Shown here: piece by piece, positions 3,140-48,672 of the stretch | Position numbering within the stretch: the first letter of the stretch is position 1 | Layout: each line of letters begins with the position of its first letter | From: an uncultured delta proteobacterium | Lineage (GTDB): Bacteria; Desulfobacterota; RBG-13-43-22 | DNA: 64,000 nucleotides | Assembly: GCA_963843145.1 (NCBI GenBank) | Contig: CAWJJC010000022.1 | Span: forward strand, 384,001-448,000 | Direction: 5' to 3' | Translations under genes and position numbers: made by a program | The notes under the pieces: model-generated | Told to the model about the DNA's origin: nothing | Database searches by the model: none | The model's input: only the letters and a program-made list of their open reading frames with translations

Positions 3140-3861
3140 TGTTAGCGGTAGAAAACCTGGAAGCCTATTACGGCGGCAACCAGGCTTTAAAAGGGGTCTC
3201 CCTGGAAGTTAAACCGGGGGAAATTGTTTCCTTGATCGGGGCCAACGGGGCCGGCAAGACGACCTTGCTCAATTGCCTCTCCAGCGTCCATCGCCGGCGG
3301 AAAGGTAAAATTGTTTTTATGGGGCAGGATGTCAGCGGGACGGATTCCCAGCAACGGGTCCGTCTGGGGATCGTTCAGGTTCCGGAAAGCCGACAGCTTT
3401 TTGGCCCCCTGACGGTCAAAGAAAACCTGGAAATGGGGGCCTTTGGCCGTTCCTGGCAGGAGAGGAAAAAGGCGCTGATCCAAGAAATAGAGCGGATTTA
3501 TGCCCTTTTCCCCATTCTTAAGGAGCGCCGAAAACAGCGGGCGGGTACCCTCTCCGGAGGAGAGCAGCAGATGCTGGCCATCGGTCGAGGATTAATGGCC
3601 AACCCCAAACTGCTCCTGCTGGATGAGCCTTCCCTGGGGTTGGCCCCCATGATCGTTCAGGAAATCTTTCGCATCATCAAGACGCTCCAGGACGAGGGCC
3701 GGACCATTCTGCTGGTCGAGCAGAATGCCCGCGGAGCGCTACAAATCTCACAGCGGGCCTATGTCCTGGAGACCGGAGAGATCACCTCCAGCGGTCGGTC
3801 GAAAGACCTGTTGCAGGATGGGAAGGTCCGCCGGGCCTTTCTAGGACAGGACATAACTTGA
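3139..3861 (+). CDS. livF: ABC transporter ATP-binding protein (LivF family)
   Basis: GANGAGKT, LSGGEQQM, LLDEPSLGLAP, VEQN. Confidence 0.93.
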   Translation: MLAVENLEAYYGGNQALKGVSLEVKPGEIVSLIGANGAGKTTLLNCLSSVHRRRKGKIVFMGQDVSGTDSQQRVRLGIVQVPESRQLFGPLTVKENLEMGAFGRSWQERKKALIQEIERIYALFPILKERRKQRAGTLSGGEQQMLAIGRGLMANPKLLLLDEPSLGLAPMIVQEIFRIIKTLQDEGRTILLVEQNARGALQISQRAYVLETGEITSSGRSKDLLQDGKVRRAFLGQDIT

Positions 3862-3903
3862 TCGCTTTAATCCGAACTATTCGTTTTCCCGAAGGGAGTT
3901 ACC

Positions 3904-9772: not shown

Positions 9773-11062
9773 ATGCCAAACACCTTCATGCCTTCTTTTC
9801 ATTCCCTTGAGGAATTAGCCGCCCATCAACTTAAGGGCCTGCAATGGACCGTCAACCATGCCTATGGCGGATCGGCTTTCTACCGAAATAAATTCGAAGA
9901 AGCCGGAATCCAGCCTGAAGATATCAAATCGTTGGACGATATCCGACGGCTGCCTTTTGTCACCGCCCAGGACCTGCGGGACGGGTATCCCTTTCCGCTG
10001 CTTTCGGTCCCCTTGGAACAAGTGGTCCGCATCCACGCCTCCTCCGGCACAACCGGGAAGCGGAAAATCCTGGCCTATACCCAGAAAGACATCGACGATT
10101 GGGCCCATTTTTTTGCGCGCTGTTACGAGATGGCCGGATTGTCCCGCGAGGACCGGGTCCAGATCGCCGTGGGCTACGGGGTCTGGACCGCCGGCGTCGG
10201 TTTTCAATTGGGCTGCGAAAGGTTCGGAGCCCTGGCCATCCCGATAGGACCCGGCAATATCGATCTCCAATGCCAGTTTCTGGAAGACCTGCAGTCCACG
10301 GTCCTTTGCTGTACCGCTTCCATGGCCCTGCTGATGGCCGAGGAGGTGGAAAAGCGGGGGCTACGAGGAAAAATCGCTTTAAAAAAAATCATCTTTGGTT
10401 CGGAACGAAGCAGTGCGGCCCAACGAAAGCGCATCCAAGAACTGCTGGGGCTGGAAGAACTGTTTGATATCCCGGGATTGACGGAACTCTACGGTCCGGG
10501 AACCGGGTTGGACTGCGTTCGTCACGAGGGTATTCATTATTGGGCCGATTATTATCTGCTTGAACTGCTGGACCCCTTGTCCCTGGAACCGGTGGAACCC
10601 GGCCAGACCGGAGAAATGGTGGTCACCACCTTGTGGAAGGAGGCGGCGCCCTTAATCCGTTACCGAACCCGGGACCTGACCCGGTTGATCGCCGGCCCCT
10701 GCTCCTGCGGGAATATCCTGCCTCGGCACGACCGGATCTTGGGGCGTTCCGACGACATGATTATATTTCGGGGCGTCAATCTCTATCCGGCCCAATTGGA
10801 TCATATCCTTTCGGAAATCCCCGAGGTGGGCAGTGAATATCAGATCCATTTAAACCGGGGGACGGACGGGAAAGATACCCTGCTGGTCCGCCTCGAACGG
10901 GCCGGCGGAGAAGACGCGGCTCGGGATAGCGATCTCGCCAAAAAGATTGAAGCGCGCATCAAACAGCAGGTCTTGGTCAGCGCCCGGATTGAGCTGGTCG
11001 ACTACGGGATGCTGCCCCGATCGGAACGGAAGTCGAAGAGGGTTTTCGACAGCAGGATATAA
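9773..11062 (+). CDS. Phenylacetate-CoA ligase family (PaaK-like aryl-acetate CoA ligase)
   Basis: 'RIHASSGTTGK', 'GLTELYGPG', 'PLIRYRTRD', 'GRSDDMIIFRGVN', C-terminal 'KSKRVFD'. Confidence 0.92.
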   Translation: MPNTFMPSFHSLEELAAHQLKGLQWTVNHAYGGSAFYRNKFEEAGIQPEDIKSLDDIRRLPFVTAQDLRDGYPFPLLSVPLEQVVRIHASSGTTGKRKILAYTQKDIDDWAHFFARCYEMAGLSREDRVQIAVGYGVWTAGVGFQLGCERFGALAIPIGPGNIDLQCQFLEDLQSTVLCCTASMALLMAEEVEKRGLRGKIALKKIIFGSERSSAAQRKRIQELLGLEELFDIPGLTELYGPGTGLDCVRHEGIHYWADYYLLELLDPLSLEPVEPGQTGEMVVTTLWKEAAPLIRYRTRDLTRLIAGPCSCGNILPRHDRILGRSDDMIIFRGVNLYPAQLDHILSEIPEVGSEYQIHLNRGTDGKDTLLVRLERAGGEDAARDSDLAKKIEARIKQQVLVSARIELVDYGMLPRSERKSKRVFDSRI

Positions 11063-43133: not shown

Positions 43134-44333
43134 ATGCCCGGTTATGAAGTGCTTGGGGAAGAAGAAAAAAAAGAGATCCTGGAAGTTCTGGAAACGGGCG
43201 TCCTGTTTCGCTACGGGTTTCCGGCCCAGCGGCAGGGCCGCTATAAGGTTGAAGAGTTTGAAAAGGCCTTTGCCGCTTTTACCGGTCGGAAACATGCCCT
43301 GGCTGTCTCTTCCGGAAGCACGGCCCTGAGGGTGGCCTTGGCCGCCTCGGCGTGGGCTTCGGGGACGAGGTCATTACCACCGGTTTCACTTTTGTGGCCA
43401 CCTGGGAAGCCATACTGGAGACCGGGGCCGTACCAGTGTTCACCGAAATCGACGACACCTTGAATATGGATCCGCAAGACCTGGAAAAGAAAATTACCCC
43501 CCGGACCCGGGCCATCATTCCGGTGCATATGCTGGGAGCCCAGGCGAATATTGAGCCGATTCTGGAAGTCGCCGGCCGGCACAACCTGCCGGTTATTGAA
43601 GATACGGCCCAGGCCGCCGGGGGATTTATCCGAGGTAAGCACCTGGGGTCCTTCGGGGCCATCGGCACCTTTTCCTTCGATTCGGTCAAGACCTTGACCA
43701 CCGGTGAGGGTGGGATGCTGATCATGGACGACCCCGAACTTTTTCGCCGGGCCTCGGAATACCACGATCACGGCCACGACCATATCGGTACCGATCGCGG
43801 ACTGGAGGGCCGGAGCTTCATCGGCTTCAACTACCGGATGATGGAGTTGCAGGGGGCGCTGGGATTGGCGCAATTGCGGAAGCTCCCGGAGATGATCGTC
43901 CCGGCAGCGGGAGAACAAGCGCCGTCTGAAGGCCATCCTCTCGGGGTTGAAGGGAATCAGGTTCCGGCACCTGCCGGATCCGGAGGGCGACACCGCTACT
44001 TTCCTGGCTTTTTTCCTGCCCGATCCGGAAAAAACCCTGGCCTTTAAAGAATTAGCCGGGAAAGGCGGGGTGGGGTTGGTTTATTTTTTCCAGAACACCT
44101 GGCATTATTACCGCAACTGGGAACATCTGCTGGGACAGAAAACCTCCGGCCACAACGGCTGGCCTTTTCGGGCCGCTGACGGGCGCGATCTTCAATACCC
44201 GCCGGATGCGCTTCCCCAGTCGGATGCCTTGATGGCCCGGACCCTGGTACTGCCCATCAACATCAAGATGGACGAGGCGATATTCGGCAAGGTGGAGCAG
44301 TTGGTCTCCGAAGCCAATAATAAATTTTTTTAG
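43134..44333 (+). CDS. kdnA: DegT/DnrJ aminotransferase, KdnA-like (8-amino-Kdo transaminase), split by two frameshifts (near 43346 and 43901)
   Basis: 'MPGYEVLGEEEKKE..FRYGF', 'SSGSTAL', 'SFDSVKT', 'DHGHDHIG.DRG', 'GLAQLRKL' match Shewanella KdnA as I recall it; adjacent to kdsB. Confidence 0.8.
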
Positions 44334-44355: not shown

Positions 44356-45093
44356 ATGGAAACTGTCATAATCATCCCGGCCCGCTTTGAATCCTCCCGA
44401 TTCCCCGGCAAGCCCTTGGCTCAGATTCACGGCTGCCCGATGATCGGCCGGGTGATTCTGCGGGCCCGGCAGATCAGCGGGGTTTCCCGGATCGCCGTGG
44501 CCACCGATGACGAGCGGATCATCGCCTGTGCCCGGGAATTTCAGGTCCCGATACTTCGAACCCGCTCGGAGCACCGAACAGGGACCGACCGGATCGCCGA
44601 AGCCGCCGATCAACTGGATCTGGCTCCCGACACGCTGGTGGTCAATATCCAGGGGGACCAGCCTTTTTTCCCCTTCCAGGCCGTTGCGGACCTGATCGCC
44701 GGTCATCAAGAGAATCCGCACTGGCCCCTGAGCACCCTGATCTACCGCATCACCGTCCCGTCCGAGATCCCGGATCCCAAGCATGTGAAGACCGTCTTCG
44801 ATTCCAGCGGCCGGGCCCTTTACTTCTCCCGCTCCCCCATCCCCTTTTACCGCGACGGCGATCCCGCCCCTGTTTATTACAAACACCTGGGCATTTACGC
44901 CTACCGCCGGGACTTCCTCGACATCTTTACTTCCCTCCCCACAGGTCCCCTGGAAGCCGCCGAAAAGCTGGAACAGCTCCGGGCCCTCGAGCACGGCTAC
45001 CCGGTCCAGGTGATCATTACCCTCCACGATTCCTTCGAGGTGGATTCTCCGGAGGACCTGCATCGGTTGCCGGGAGATAACCCCGTTTTTTAA
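44356..45093 (+). CDS. kdsB: 3-deoxy-manno-octulosonate cytidylyltransferase
   Basis: '[15 protein letters not shown]', 'TGTDR', 'NIQGDQP', '[10 protein letters not shown]', 'EKLEQLR'. Confidence 0.95.
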
Positions 45094-45137
45094 TAGCCGG
45101 TTGAAAAGGGGATTAGGAATGAAAAAGTCCGGATGCC

Positions 45138-45484
45138 TTGAAATCACAATTTGTGATTTCAAGTTGGGGTGTTTGCGGCGGGCTCGACCTTATGCCTTCA
45201 CTGAACAAGGCGTGGCCATGCTTTCCAGTGTGCTGCGCAGTGAGCGGGCTATTCAGGTCAACATCGCCATCATGAGGGTTTTCGTACGACTCCGCCAGAT
45301 GCTGGCAACCCATAAGGATCTGGCGACCAAGTTGGCCGAGCTTGAAAATCGGCTTAAGGATCACGATGAGCAGATTTTGGCCATCTTCGACGCCATCCGC
45401 GCCCTGATGGTCCCACCGGAAAAACCCAAGAAGAAGATCGGGTTCGACCTGAAGGAGAAACAAGCGGGATACAGAAAAAGATGA
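45138..45484 (+). pseudogene. ORF6N-domain DNA-binding protein, N-terminally truncated
   Basis: '[11 protein letters not shown]' (shifted frame), then '[34 protein letters not shown]...KKIGF'; the N-terminal half of the domain is missing. Confidence 0.8.
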
Positions 45485-45528
45485 AAAGATGGGGGGAAAA
45501 GAGTGTTATAAAGCCAGGAACGCCTAAG

Positions 45529-45630
45529 AAAAAACGCCCCCTCAACCAAAATTGAGAAGGCGTCGGGCCGGAGATGCTATCTCCGGGGCTGTTAATTATT
45601 GTATTTTACCATCTGCCTGCGTTTCGTCAA
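45529..45630 (-). ncRNA. Candidate small RNA (promoter, hairpin, terminator; no ORF)
   Basis: Minus strand TTGACG-16-TAAAAT, hairpin CCGGAGAT-agc-ATCTCCGG, terminator GACGCC...GGCGTT followed by a T run. Confidence 0.4.
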
Positions 45631-45641
45631 GAAAATAGAAA

Positions 45642-45728
45642 TTTTGGAGTGCGGCGACACGTCGCCGCTTTCCTATATCGGGACGCGTCCCAGTGATCAA
45701 AGCGCGGACGCGTCCGCGCACTCCAAAA
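45642..45728. repeat. REP-like compound palindrome (TTTTGGAGTGCG...CGCACTCCAAAA)
   Basis: 12-bp terminal inverted repeats enclosing three internal palindromes. Confidence 0.75.
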
Positions 45729-45777
45729 AAACCAACGGTCGCCATAACGGTATACTACACCGATAGAAGGAGGCAAA

Positions 45778-47244
45778 ATGCCAACCATCGGACGAAACGA
45801 CCCCTGTCCTTGCGGCAGCGGGAAAAAGTACAAGAAATGCTGTCTAAACGAAACCAAGGTGGTCTCCACCGAAGAGTTCCACTACCAGCGGTTGTCGGAG
45901 GCCTATAACCAGGTCTTCGACAAAATGGCCGAATTTTGCGGACGGGTGCTGGGGCCGGAGGCGGAGGACCGGGCTTTGTCCGAGTACTGGATGGCCGCCG
46001 GCGTAGACGTCTCTCCCGCCGACGAGGATATTAAACGGCAGATGCCTCTGTTCGCTCCCTGGATGGTTTTCAACTGGGAGGTTGACGCGTCTGCTTCCGC
46101 CAAAAATCGACCGGCCATCGAGGGGAAGACAGTAGCCGAAATCCTTCTCCAGGATCCGACTTGCCGGCTCGATTCCCTGGAACGCCAGTTGGCCGAAGCC
46201 TCCAATCGTAACCCTTACCGTTTTTTCGAAGTGCTGCGGGTGGACCCTGGGAAACGGGTCGATCTGCAGGACGTCTTGACGGGCGTCACGTATACGGTCC
46301 AGGAGCGGTCTGGGTCGCATTATATGAAACCGCATGACCTGCTCTTCGGTCGAGTGGCCGCGATCGACGAAGTCAACATGTTTATCGGGCTGATCCCCTA
46401 TCCCATTCCCCCCGCCTACAAGGTCGGCCTCATCGAATTGCGAAACCGGCTGAAGGCGGGAAAGGCGGAGATCACCGAGGCCGACATCCGGACCGGGGAG
46501 ACGGAAATCCGCCGGGAGTTTTTTCTGATGGACCACTTCCTGCACCATCCCCCCACCATCTGCAACACCGACGGCGATCCTTTGGAACCGCATAAACTGA
46601 TTTTCGAGATTGATTCGCCGGAAAGGGTGTTGGATGAACTGGCCTCTCTCAGTGTCACCGAATCCAAGGAAGAGATTGTCCGCAACGCCCACTACAACGA
46701 GGACGGCAGCCTTCAACGGGTGGAATGGGACTGGAGCCGGCCGGGCCACAAACAAAGCCCCGGAATGTCCAATACGATTCTGGGAAATTTGAAGATCGAC
46801 GGAAGCCGGTTTACGGTCGAGGTGAATTCGGCGAATCGGGCCAAAAAAATTCGAAAAACTATCGAAAAACGTTTGGGAACCACGGTCCGCTTCAAACTGG
46901 ACGAAATCACTCCATTCAGACCACAGGAAGTGTGGGAATCCGCCCAGGACCCGGATAGGCGGGAATCGGCCTCCGATAAATTCCTGATCCAGAACCCGGA
47001 GGTGCAACGGGCACTGGCCGAAAGCATGCGGTCCCATTGGGAAGGCTGGGTGGACATGAAAATCCCGGCTTTAGGTAACCGGACTCCGCGAGAGGCGGTT
47101 CGCACGGCAGACGGCCGGGAGGCCGTGGAGGCCCTGCTCATCGATTTTGAACGGGGGAAAGCCGTCCAACCGGAGTTGAACGAGTTCAACCGTCGTGGGG
47201 TTCAGCGGGTCAGGGAATTACTGGGCTTGGCGAAAAAAGGATAG
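45778..47244 (+). CDS. SEC-C motif protein with a C-terminal Xre/MbcA/ParS-like (DUF2384) domain
   Basis: N-terminal '[19 protein letters not shown]'; C-terminal '[31 protein letters not shown]'. Confidence 0.82.
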
Positions 47245-47913
47245 ATGTTGGACGCTCCTACCCCTCCAAAATGCCTCGAATGCGCCAAATTTTACCGGCA
47301 CCAGCCTCACGTCACGTGCCGGGTCTGCAATGACTTCAGGCTGGAAGAAACGCTCTTATGCGATCTGAACCGAATGATTCAGAAGCCGGACCCTTTCCAT
47401 TGTCACGCCTTCCAGCCCCGGCTCCACCTGGCCGGGACGAGGGAAGATGGACAGCCTACGAAATCGAGGCCGACTCCTCCTCGATCCCAGCTTCAATTCC
47501 TCCGGGATTTTTTGAAATCGGATAAGATCAAGTACCGAAAGGCCCTGGCCCTGCAAAAACTGGAACAGGACCCGGATGAGATTATAGTCAATCTTAAATA
47601 TCACCTGCTCTGGAACACGGCCCACCGAAGGCCGGTCTTTATTCCTCCCAAAAAGTATTTTGAAAATGTATTCGACCTGTTTCTCGGTTTCGGGGAATTG
47701 GTCGGTGGTACGGCCGCTTTGATGTGGCTGGCCCCGGATCATGTCCATGTCTATGTGGAAACGGATGGCGAGAAACCCTTGGAGGCCATTGTGAAGAAAT
47801 TGAAGGCAGCTTCCTCTAAAGCCCTTTTGGAGCAATTTCAAAACACGAAGGAGAATCTGACCAAAGGCGGACGCCTTTGGGATAAGGCTTATTTTGTAGA
47901 GACCATAGGCTGA
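47245..47913 (+). CDS. Cys-rich domain fused to an IS200/IS605 TnpA-like (Y1 HUH) domain lacking the catalytic YxxxQ helix
   Basis: 'CLEC..CRVC..LC..HCH', then 'LKYHLLWNT..R', 'PDHVHV', 'IVKKLK..SS', 'LWDKAYFVETIG*'. Confidence 0.8.
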   Translation: MLDAPTPPKCLECAKFYRHQPHVTCRVCNDFRLEETLLCDLNRMIQKPDPFHCHAFQPRLHLAGTREDGQPTKSRPTPPRSQLQFLRDFLKSDKIKYRKALALQKLEQDPDEIIVNLKYHLLWNTAHRRPVFIPPKKYFENVFDLFLGFGELVGGTAALMWLAPDHVHVYVETDGEKPLEAIVKKLKAASSKALLEQFQNTKENLTKGGRLWDKAYFVETIG

Positions 47914-48341
47914 AGGTATTTGTACAATTTTCGGCAGGTGGCGTCGAAGGACCGCGATTCCTCTTCCGAATCCAAGTGGCGACAATAGGGACCGCCCTCC
48001 AGTCCGATCGTTTCCATCAGTTTCTGTTGGGGAGTAAAGCGGAGGTATTCATTGTCATCGTTGACCTCCCGAATGATCTCCCCGCCGAGCAGCCAGAGGT
48101 TATCGATGTGGTTTCGGATAGTTGACTTGGACCACCCGTAATCGATAAGCGACTGAATGAAAGGACGAAATACCTCGACAAGTCCTTCCCCATAGGGAAC
48201 ATCTTTGTCCTCACCTTTCCAACTGTCTGGCCATTCCTGAAAATCGGGGCAGATCTTTTCAATGGTCAGGAGGGAGAGGGCCGCCCTCTTTTGCTTAAGG
48301 GGAGAATTCTCCACGCCCTTCTTGGTTAATCGAGTGCTCAT
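47889..48341 (-). CDS. Hypothetical protein
   Basis: Natural-looking globular sequence ('WPDSW', 'TIRNHIDNLWLLGGEII', 'FDATCRKLY'); ATGA coupling with the upstream ORF. Confidence 0.7.
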   Translation of the reverse strand: MSTRLTKKGVENSPLKQKRAALSLLTIEKICPDFQEWPDSWKGEDKDVPYGEGLVEVFRPFIQSLIDYGWSKSTIRNHIDNLWLLGGEIIREVNDDNEYLRFTPQQKLMETIGLEGGPYCRHLDSEEESRSFDATCRKLYKYLQPMVSTK

Positions 48342-48526
48342 TTCTTTCCCAAAGCCTCCAAGTCAGCCATTTCTTTTTGCTTCCGCTCGATTTCCTCTTC
48401 CAGCTCTTCAATGACCAGCAATTGGTGGGGGCGGATAGAGTGGGCCGGCAGGGCCGCTTCGCGGTCGACCTTATCCAACTTTAGTTTTTCTATCTCTTCC
48501 TGAAGCCGGGCTATTTTAGGGTCCAT
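48338..48526 (-). CDS. Small coiled-coil protein
   Basis: 'REAALPAHSIRPHQLLVIEELEEEI'; coupled to the downstream gene. Confidence 0.65.
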   Translation of the reverse strand: MDPKIARLQEEIEKLKLDKVDREAALPAHSIRPHQLLVIEELEEEIERKQKEMADLEALGKK

Positions 48527-48672
48527 GGGGAGTGATCCTATCAAAAACCTTGAAGAAGTCAAGAAGGCTTCAAGCCGTCATCCCCGATCAGGGCCGCAGA
48601 CGAAGTTGGGATCATTTAGATCGGCAGGGGAGCGACCACCTGGACCTCATAGGGGGGGGCATTTCGTCCCAT

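Follow-up and report, generated by a model that had tools for sequence, protein, structure and literature searches.

The stretch of DNA considered here (64,000 nucleotides at its full length, henceforth the window) belongs to an uncultured delta proteobacterium of the Desulfobacterota, lineage RBG-13-43-22. It covers positions 384,001 to 448,000 of the forward strand of contig CAWJJC010000022.1, in a genome of 5.3 Mb (assembly GCA_963843145.1). Two of its genes follow each other almost without a gap. The first codes for a protein of the SEC-C family. The second, named Y1-like below, codes for a derivative of TnpA, the transposase of the IS200/IS605 insertion sequences (IS), which keeps the HUH motif of that enzyme, lacks the helix with its catalytic tyrosine, and carries a head with six cysteines. 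An original prediction, drawn from the letters of the DNA, had described the second protein as a domesticated transposase and placed both genes in a common system. Comparison with relatives upholds most of what was said of the protein and speaks against the system. The features on which the argument turns are the following.

45778..47244, plus strand: SEC-C family gene, 488 residues; SEC-C zinc motif at the N-terminus, alpha/beta domain in the middle, helical domain at the C-terminus (open reading frame and Pfam)
47245..47913, plus strand: Y1-like gene, a tyrosine-less HUH protein derived from IS200/IS605 TnpA, with a six-cysteine head (open reading frame, 222 residues from ATG)
47272..47406, plus strand: N-terminal Cys head, residues 10-54, with C10, C13, C25, C28, C39 and C53; presumed metal-binding module
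47518..47568, plus strand: amphipathic helix that precedes the core (residues 92-108), with the motif K-[YW]-x-x-A-[LY]-x-x-Q (helix 93-108 in the AlphaFold2 model)
47737..47748, plus strand: HUH motif D165-H166-V167-H168, aligned to the HUH of solved TnpAs

The Y1-like protein and its family

Counted from the ATG at 47245, the Y1-like gene begins directly behind the TAG of the SEC-C gene, on the same strand, and it was in this form that the two had been seen to abut. The likely start lies slightly further on, however. A database protein identical to the Y1-like product (100%) has 221 residues, and relatives of the same lineage keep a TTG or an ATG at the position of the window's 47248, where they do not keep the ATG of 47245. 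Judging from these comparisons the true start is probably the TTG at 47248 (221 residues), which would leave the two genes 3 nucleotides apart rather than abutting.

The C-terminal half of the protein is that of a TnpA. It matches the Pfam profile Y1_Tnp above the cut-off (residues 115-222 on profile positions 3-107 of 121, E 3.1e-15, 56.8 bits) and also exceeds the threshold of the NCBIfam IS200 equivalog (60.9 bits for a cut-off of 55). With the transposases of IS608 and ISDra2 and their relatives of known structure (2VHG, 2A6M, 2XO6, 2EC2) it shares the pattern YH..W...R of strand beta1, the D-H-u-H motif and the last strand, W..YF..T.G. These enzymes continue with helix alphaD, which provides both the tyrosine nucleophile and a glutamine ligand, whereas the Y1-like protein has no such helix. 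When the family profile is set against solved TnpAs (2EC2, 2XO6/2XM3, 2F4F, 2VHG/2A6M), a core of about 108 residues is aligned (E 2e-13 to 6e-8), and the alignment stops before the C-terminal tyrosine helices, at residue 117 of 155 in 2A6M and at residue 121 of 140 in 2XO6. The catalytic tyrosine is Y132 in ISDra2 (PDB title of 2XO6) and, according to the abstract of PMC3597680, Y127 in IS608. The window's protein, whose sequence closes on ...YFVETIG, ends exactly at the last core strand, and as a result the helix with the nucleophilic tyrosine and the glutamine is gone. The intact HVH, the end at YFVETIG and the missing YxxxQ helix had all been noticed in the original prediction, and all three stand.

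Ahead of this core are some 110 residues that IS200/IS605 transposases do not have, with the pattern C10-x2-C13, C25-x2-C28, C39 and H52-C53-H54 that had likewise been described. AlphaFold2 (AF2) models the head with a confidence (pLDDT) of 75-81 over residues 11-60, and comparison with Pfam yields only sub-threshold matches to the double zinc ribbon DZR_2 (E 0.06-0.17). The monomer as a whole reaches a mean pLDDT of 63.9, its core strands remaining below 50, and the matches to TnpA that Foldseek retrieves with this model are weak (best E 0.16).

The combination of head and truncated core is not peculiar to the window. A word-indexed search, with 439 candidates and a cut-off of E <= 0.001, placed 323 clusters in the family, most of them of 216-235 residues. 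An exhaustive profile search of clusters formed at 50% identity gave 1034 matches at E <= 0.001, with 74 at E <= 1e-30. Every full-length family match of that second search ends where the profile ends, and canonical TnpAs, which have 132-158 residues and run past this end, appear only from about E 1e-13. Among the best 150 profile matches, inspected for their architecture, no protein has both the Cys head and the tyrosine helix. Representative genomes hold 108 Y1-like loci. The statistics on neighbours, intactness and stop codons given below come from 80 genomic loci of other species, whose copies are intact in 66 cases and disrupted in 12, the remaining 2 running off the end of a contig. In 65 of the 66 intact copies the stop follows ETxG directly, and since all three stop codons are used (TGA 36, TAA 25, TAG 5), recoding of the stop is unlikely.

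Conservation of individual residues was followed in 42 diverse representatives, down to 24% identity, an earlier set having consisted of 96 close members. Invariant in all 42 are the six cysteines (C10, C13, C25, C28, C39, C53), together with H120, R128, the two histidines of the HUH motif (H166, H168) and F217; D165 is present in 41 of them and H54 is not conserved. Across these representatives there is no invariant tyrosine column. Without a conserved tyrosine a 5'-phosphotyrosine intermediate cannot form. Fourteen pairs were informative for the ratio of nonsynonymous to synonymous substitutions (dN/dS); 13 of them gave 0.15-0.33 and one gave 0.57. Homologs and dN/dS were among the checks proposed with the original prediction; both have now been carried out, and head and truncation prove to be family-wide. 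The family to which the Y1-like protein belongs, as an intact member, is conserved and lineage-restricted; its proteins have about 223 residues and derive from the Y1 transposase of IS200/IS605. Generic labels aside, all named records of its loci are delta-proteobacterial or metagenome-assembled genomes (MAGs) of Desulfobacterota type. In databases the family goes under the labels 'transposase', 'IS200/IS605 family transposase' or 'RayT', and searches of the full-text literature gave no paper describing a tyrosine-less, Cys-headed IS200-like family.

A tyrosine displaced to another place in the protein, or just beyond its gene, has been considered. In the helix that precedes the core, Y97 and Q104 are invariant in the 96 close members, which suggested a circularly permuted site of the relaxase kind. 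This candidate lost weight with the wider sample, in which position 97 is Y in 21 of the 42 representatives, W in 15, F in 2 and another residue in 4, Q104 being present in 34. Ten of the W97-type sequences have a tyrosine at position 101, on the same helical face as 97; all in all a tyrosine stands at 97 or 101 in 31 of 42 and at neither in 11. The alignment thus makes of position 97 what looks like a packing aromatic residue, not a nucleophile. Downstream of the gene, a YxxxQ helix is not enriched in 62 loci (7 observed, 8.4 expected). Read-through, or a helix split from the gene, was also tried and rejected: the YxxxQ-like string that follows the window's TGA is part of the convergent gene, whose 3' end is conserved. 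In one relative (L112) such a string lies about 200 nucleotides away from the Y1-like gene.

Copy number, flanks and genomic islands

The Y1-like gene is not an active IS200/IS605 element, in line with what had been argued from the window. Its genome has 11 matches to PF01797, only one of which belongs to the Y1-like family, and the TnpB-type domain PF07282 is found nowhere in it. Four large or complete genomes possess one Y1-like copy each, broken in one case, and one of the four carries in addition four canonical IS200 copies of 152 residues. Between loci, homology ends about 15-110 nucleotides upstream of the start and about 10-60 after the stop; its upstream part covers the ribosome-binding site and, in one subgroup, a promoter-like stretch as well. 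No terminal sequences, end structures or target motif are shared between the compared loci. In the 250-nucleotide flanks of 60 loci hairpins are not in excess of control windows (mean quantile 0.61 upstream, 0.51 downstream), and in the window itself there is no room for IS ends, the upstream gene abutting and the convergent gene overlapping. Homologs with a YxxxQ helix, in several copies and between IS ends, would have told a different story from the one found, which is no tyrosine, about one copy per genome and no ends. In one subgroup both borders show a short inverted match (TTCTGT...); another subgroup does not show it, and it was treated as chance.

No Y1-like relatives were found in the plasmids of PLSDB, the phages of INPHARED or in IMG/VR. 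A crude scan for attC sites, based on R''/R' boxes and complementarity and with no dedicated model, returned 0 candidates in the 686,507 bases of the 80 loci, and 0 in shuffled sequence. In 60 of 74 loci the upstream neighbour points the same way as the Y1-like gene.

Repeats were observed near some copies. In one locus (L021) a perfect hairpin of 24 nucleotides occurs twice (2870-2939 and 10652-10700) and brackets a 7.7-kb segment containing the Y1-like gene; it may be a repeat of that genome akin to repetitive extragenic palindromic (REP) sequences or miniature inverted-repeat transposable elements (MITEs). Some loci from Desulfobacterales MAGs (L018, 2294-2368 and 5652-5800; L021, 833-904) have, close upstream of the gene, tandem arrays of a 7- or 8-nucleotide repeat, which are partly long inverted ones.

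Two other groups of HUH proteins invite comparison. RAYTs (TnpA-REP) are, like the Y1-like protein, encoded by single-copy chromosomal genes of the Y1 type with a patchy spread that fits gain and loss or horizontal transfer, and one source names the present family 'REP element-mobilizing transposase RayT'. However, RAYTs keep the catalytic tyrosine and are flanked by high-copy REP or BIME (bacterial interspersed mosaic element) sequences, whereas here the tyrosine is absent and the only palindrome nearby is single-copy; NCBIfam REP_Tyr_transpos scores 24.3 bits for a cut-off of 80. Transposases of the IS91/ISCR type also join an N-terminal Cys-rich zinc module to an HUH domain. These are large Y2 enzymes with catalytic tyrosines, from a different HUH lineage, and Pfam comparisons detected no sequence similarity. 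By contrast with IS200/IS605 elements proper, the Y1-like gene is single-copy, has no left-end and right-end hairpins and no TnpB, and its product has the added residues with their six invariant cysteines. It descends from IS200/IS605 TnpA but fails both the catalytic and the element-level features of its ancestors, and it fails the definition of a RAYT as well.

The surroundings of the gene are those of genomic islands. By Pfam name, 36 of 143 nearest neighbours are of toxin–antitoxin (TA), restriction-modification (RM), abortive-infection (Abi), Fic, integrase or IS type. MazF, ParE, Phd, HicB, HEPN/MNT, restriction-modification, Fic, an AbiEii-type ATPase, RloB, integrase and IS110 are all represented. 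Blocks common to closely related loci sit at different relative positions. Such neighbours and shuffled blocks, together with a patchy presence and a low dN/dS, point on comparative grounds to an accessory gene that is under selection yet dispensable, and that resides in shuffling islands. To call it domesticated, as the original prediction did, overstates the case, for the gene is present in 10 of 60 relatives and broken in 12 of the 80 loci.

The SEC-C gene and the upstream segment

The first gene had been said to join a SEC-C zinc motif to an Xre/MbcA-type toxin-binding domain. The motif is clear (PF02810, residues 6-23, E 3.9e-10), its four cysteines C10, C12, C21 and C22 (CxC...CC) being invariant in 67 members of the SEC-C family. 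The second domain is borderline. Over 33 residues (423-455), Xre_MbcA_ParS_C, of the DUF2384 type, reaches 25.5 bits for a cut-off of 24.5; NCBIfam Xre_ParS_antitoxin reaches 20.6 bits for a cut-off of 90, and no helix-turn-helix domain is reported. In the Xre/MbcA/ParS-RES systems it is the C-terminal toxin-binding domain of the antitoxin that this stretch matches, at the Pfam threshold. No RES/MbcT toxin is adjacent here, and the protein, with its 488 residues, belongs to a large SEC-C family of its own. With 8000 scored candidates and a cut-off of E <= 0.001, that family comprises at least 1336 matches; the gene is single-copy in the window genome. The AF2 model of the protein (pLDDT 85.4) finds no Foldseek match in the PDB at E <= 0.001, and VIA-align gives Z <= 7.5 there, for single domains only.

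The original prediction made of these two genes a translationally coupled pair, TA-like or regulatory, possibly acting on the palindrome upstream. Several observations agree with it. The genes are 0-3 nucleotides apart on one strand, and the first has its borderline DUF2384-type match. Within the window lineage the locus is syntenic among relatives, and the palindrome-preceded pair is ancestral in the genus: one relative (G003) retains, in order, kdsB, the palindrome, ~50 nucleotides from the 3' end of SEC-C, nine codons from the start of Y1 and an HUH fragment of 47 nucleotides, and another (L111) has both genes as far as its contig reaches. Against this, a SEC-C family gene adjoins the Y1-like gene in only 1 of the 80 other loci, upstream of it in the nearest relative (L058), so that the pairing is very nearly unique to this genome, being limited to one genus-level lineage. 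The SEC-C family moreover outnumbers the Y1-like one by far, with 1336 or more matches to its 323 clusters, and the Y1-like protein is not a RES/MbcT toxin. One further locus (L061) has an unrelated small open reading frame with a SEC-C motif downstream of Y1-like, and the largest cluster of neighbour proteins is found in 5 of 80 loci.

The two genes also decay independently. In the nearest relative (L058) SEC-C is intact while Y1 has suffered a 180-nucleotide deletion and a TGG-to-TGA stop; another (L112) lacks SEC-C and has an intact Y1 immediately after a truncated palindrome. Four loci (L113-L116) have SEC-C reduced to residues 1-38 and 447-488 and a Y1 with D165E/H166Q, to which two of the four add a stop. 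Elsewhere Y1 has lost its N-terminal half (L119, L120) or is frameshifted (L117). Either gene can thus be lost without the other, whereas the partners of a TA system could not both be dispensable in this way, and the losses speak against a TA pair. The SEC-C gene is an unrelated upstream neighbour, inherited in one genus-level lineage, and not a functional partner of Y1-like. When the two proteins were co-folded, the score was 0.00 in both of two runs, a figure that weighs neither for nor against binding. Upstream of the full SEC-C gene of L058 there is, at 3740-3887, a partial duplicate of its 5' end (148 nucleotides, 75% identity).

Two further families bear on the question of partners. DUF6398 genes follow Y1-like in four loci (L026, L040, L056, L057), one more lying 2 kb away, and DUF1186 genes adjoin it in three. 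Both are rare, with 0-2 copies in five genomes, and in the database proteins P0236 and P0238 a DUF6398 domain is fused C-terminally to the SEC-C family, which may be held in favour of a pair. The four DUF6398-adjacent loci, however, form a single clade, with the DUF1186 loci in its neighbourhood, so that these adjacencies stand for few independent events and the four DUF6398 cases count as one. Residence in the same islands could explain these adjacencies. In one genome with a single Y1-like gene and four identical canonical IS200 copies (G061, contig 1, ~1527604-1529293), a DUF1186 gene is found ~650 nucleotides from one of the four.

Three more features complete the locus.

45101..45484, plus strand: truncated open reading frame of the ORF6N / PDC-S05-like kind (PADLOC PDC-S05, E 2.9e-26, profile positions 81-175 of 177)
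45642..45728, no strand assigned: compound palindrome, ~50 nucleotides upstream of the SEC-C start, single copy
47889..48341, minus strand: convergent open reading frame of 150 residues, function not assigned, its 3' end overlapping the Y1-like gene by 25 nucleotides

The palindrome, which had been called REP-like, is real: its arms are 83% complementary, and as single-stranded DNA it folds at -27.6 kcal/mol (z = -5.3 relative to shuffled sequences). It has one copy in the 5.3 Mb of the genome, and being single-copy it is not a REP in the sense of repetitive. Rfam has no match in 45000-48600. At the 5' side of the locus the palindrome recurs in G003 (88% identical) and in L112 (91% over 70 nucleotides), and it is absent from L058 and L113-L116. 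It holds two copies of a 10-nucleotide palindrome about two helical turns apart, an arrangement that would suit an operator; from its sequence it may act locally, in regulation or as a terminator. A variable segment of 686 nucleotides (45092-45777) is not shared with L058, and in G003 it is missing from the interval that separates kdsB from the palindrome. The N-terminally truncated open reading frame of this segment also matches a phage anti-repressor PHROG. Between it and the palindrome there is a strong terminator-like hairpin on the minus strand (45533-45564, 14 pairs), and a promoter-like site of the same strand is seen at 45630-45603. The convergent open reading frame at 47889..48341, with no match in Pfam, NCBIfam, PADLOC or PHROG, is kept beside Y1 in relatives of the lineage. 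Further upstream, a DegT-like aminotransferase recognised from translations (43134-44333) seems to be split over three frames that overlap one another (43134..43463, 43352..44047 and 43947..44333), frameshifts or assembly errors being possible.

Function and rival readings

The explanation that accounts best for the whole, with a probability of about 0.55, is that the Y1-like protein is a conserved, tyrosine-less, six-Cys-headed derivative of IS200 that stands alone and binds single-stranded or hairpin DNA, SEC-C being no partner. Its ancestor would be a Y1 transposase of IS200/IS605, from which it would have kept the RRM-like HUH core with the metal-binding histidines and lost the Tyr/Gln helix, while gaining the N-terminal six-Cys module and the short helix behind it. 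The gene is chromosomal, single-copy and accessory, has a ribosome-binding site of its own and resides in fast-shuffling islands of TA, RM or defence type. The Cys head would serve as a nucleic-acid-binding module holding zinc (or an Fe-S centre). From all this we infer, as the most likely function, that the protein binds single-stranded or hairpin DNA in a metal-dependent manner, is unable to transpose and carries out no recombination.

To be sure, a number of points weigh against this explanation. So strict a conservation of the HUH histidines is not expected of a pure binder, and may betray catalysis; as far as residues can tell, the invariance of the pair leaves room for a hydrolytic nuclease or a sensor. 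The AF2 monomer is too poor to place either the head or helix 93-108 relative to the HUH site. Among the relatives, presence is patchy even at short range, with 1 of 3 members of the same genus having the gene, in a broken copy. Two Y1-like copies occur in four MAGs (L050 and L053, for example, have 95% identity over ~800 nucleotides), although MAG bins can merge strains, which makes the 'two copies' uncertain. Copies in different species may have 85-95% nucleotide identity with unrelated flanks. Patchiness, broken copies, two-copy MAGs and high identity between unrelated flanks fit a selfish or mobile gene equally well. Finally, two clades of Y1-like genes adjoin proteins that are linked with each other, the SEC-C family in one and DUF6398 in the other, and this gives a partner class a small remaining chance.

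Of the alternatives, the one that fares best, unlikely as it is, turns the protein into an effector of defence or conflict islands, which would sense foreign single-stranded DNA, such as the rolling-circle intermediates of phages and plasmids, or nick it hydrolytically, a metal-activated water replacing the tyrosine. Both HUH histidines, H120 and R128 remain invariant despite the loss of the nucleophile; about a quarter of the nearest neighbours are of TA, RM, Abi or Fic type; the window's variable segment holds the PDC-S05-like fragment; and patchy presence with frequent loss is typical of defence genes. On the other side, the protein has no significant PADLOC match (the best, PDC-M30A, stays at 13 bits and E 0.0096, and no stretch of it passes), no partner or system architecture is fixed, and residence in islands is weak evidence of function. 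HUH enzymes, moreover, are not known to cut without a tyrosine. More speculative, and rather doubtful, is the proposal that the family forms a new class of HUH proteins without covalent tyrosine chemistry, metal-dependent six-Cys (Zn or Fe-S) sensors or hydrolytic nickases of single-stranded or hairpin DNA in the conflict islands of Desulfobacterota, working perhaps with SEC-C, DUF6398 and DUF1186 proteins of at least two clades.

It is improbable that the gene is a functionless relic, a slowly decaying transposase remnant that is still open in the window genome by chance. Twelve of 80 loci are disrupted, to be sure, most copies of the window lineage are damaged (L058, G003, L113-L116, L117, L119/L120), and a published survey of Y1 proteins sets aside sequences without the core motifs as probably non-functional (PMC6006769). 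But most copies remain intact (66 of 80); protein length, the C-terminal end and 11 alignment columns hold down to 24% identity; dN/dS is low in most pairs; and a remnant in decay would not preserve an added Cys head as this family does.

A still-mobile, non-canonical element, moving itself or shuffling cassettes with a nucleophile taken from the N-terminal helix (Tyr 97/101 and Gln 104) in a circularly permuted Y1 site, is quite improbable. The invariance of Y97 and Q104 in close members, a tyrosine at one of two positions of the same helical face in 31 of 42 representatives, the similar copies between unrelated flanks and the two-copy MAGs would agree with it; but half of the representatives (21 of 42) have W, F or some other residue at position 97, and in 11 of 42 neither place holds a tyrosine, where the HUH histidines and the cysteines are kept in 42 of 42, and complete genomes have a single copy, with no shared ends, hairpins or target motif, and with no relative in the plasmid, phage and viral collections searched. 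The coupled SEC-C and Y1-like pair, finally, has very little to recommend it once the single adjoining locus and the independent decay of the two genes are taken into account.

The tight adjacency of two genes, with 0-3 nucleotides from stop to start, can therefore be an accident of one lineage rather than the mark of a system, and this locus offers a case in point. As the Y1-like protein is without the residue that transposases need, counts of mobile elements that include its genes in genomes of sulfate reducers are inflated. The family associates the HUH histidines and an invariant six-Cys module with the impossibility of a phosphotyrosine link, and it provides a clean natural case of what an HUH fold does without its nucleophile, be it binding, sensing or hydrolysis. 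Should the protein turn out to be catalytic, HUH enzymes would have a wider chemistry than the one now known.

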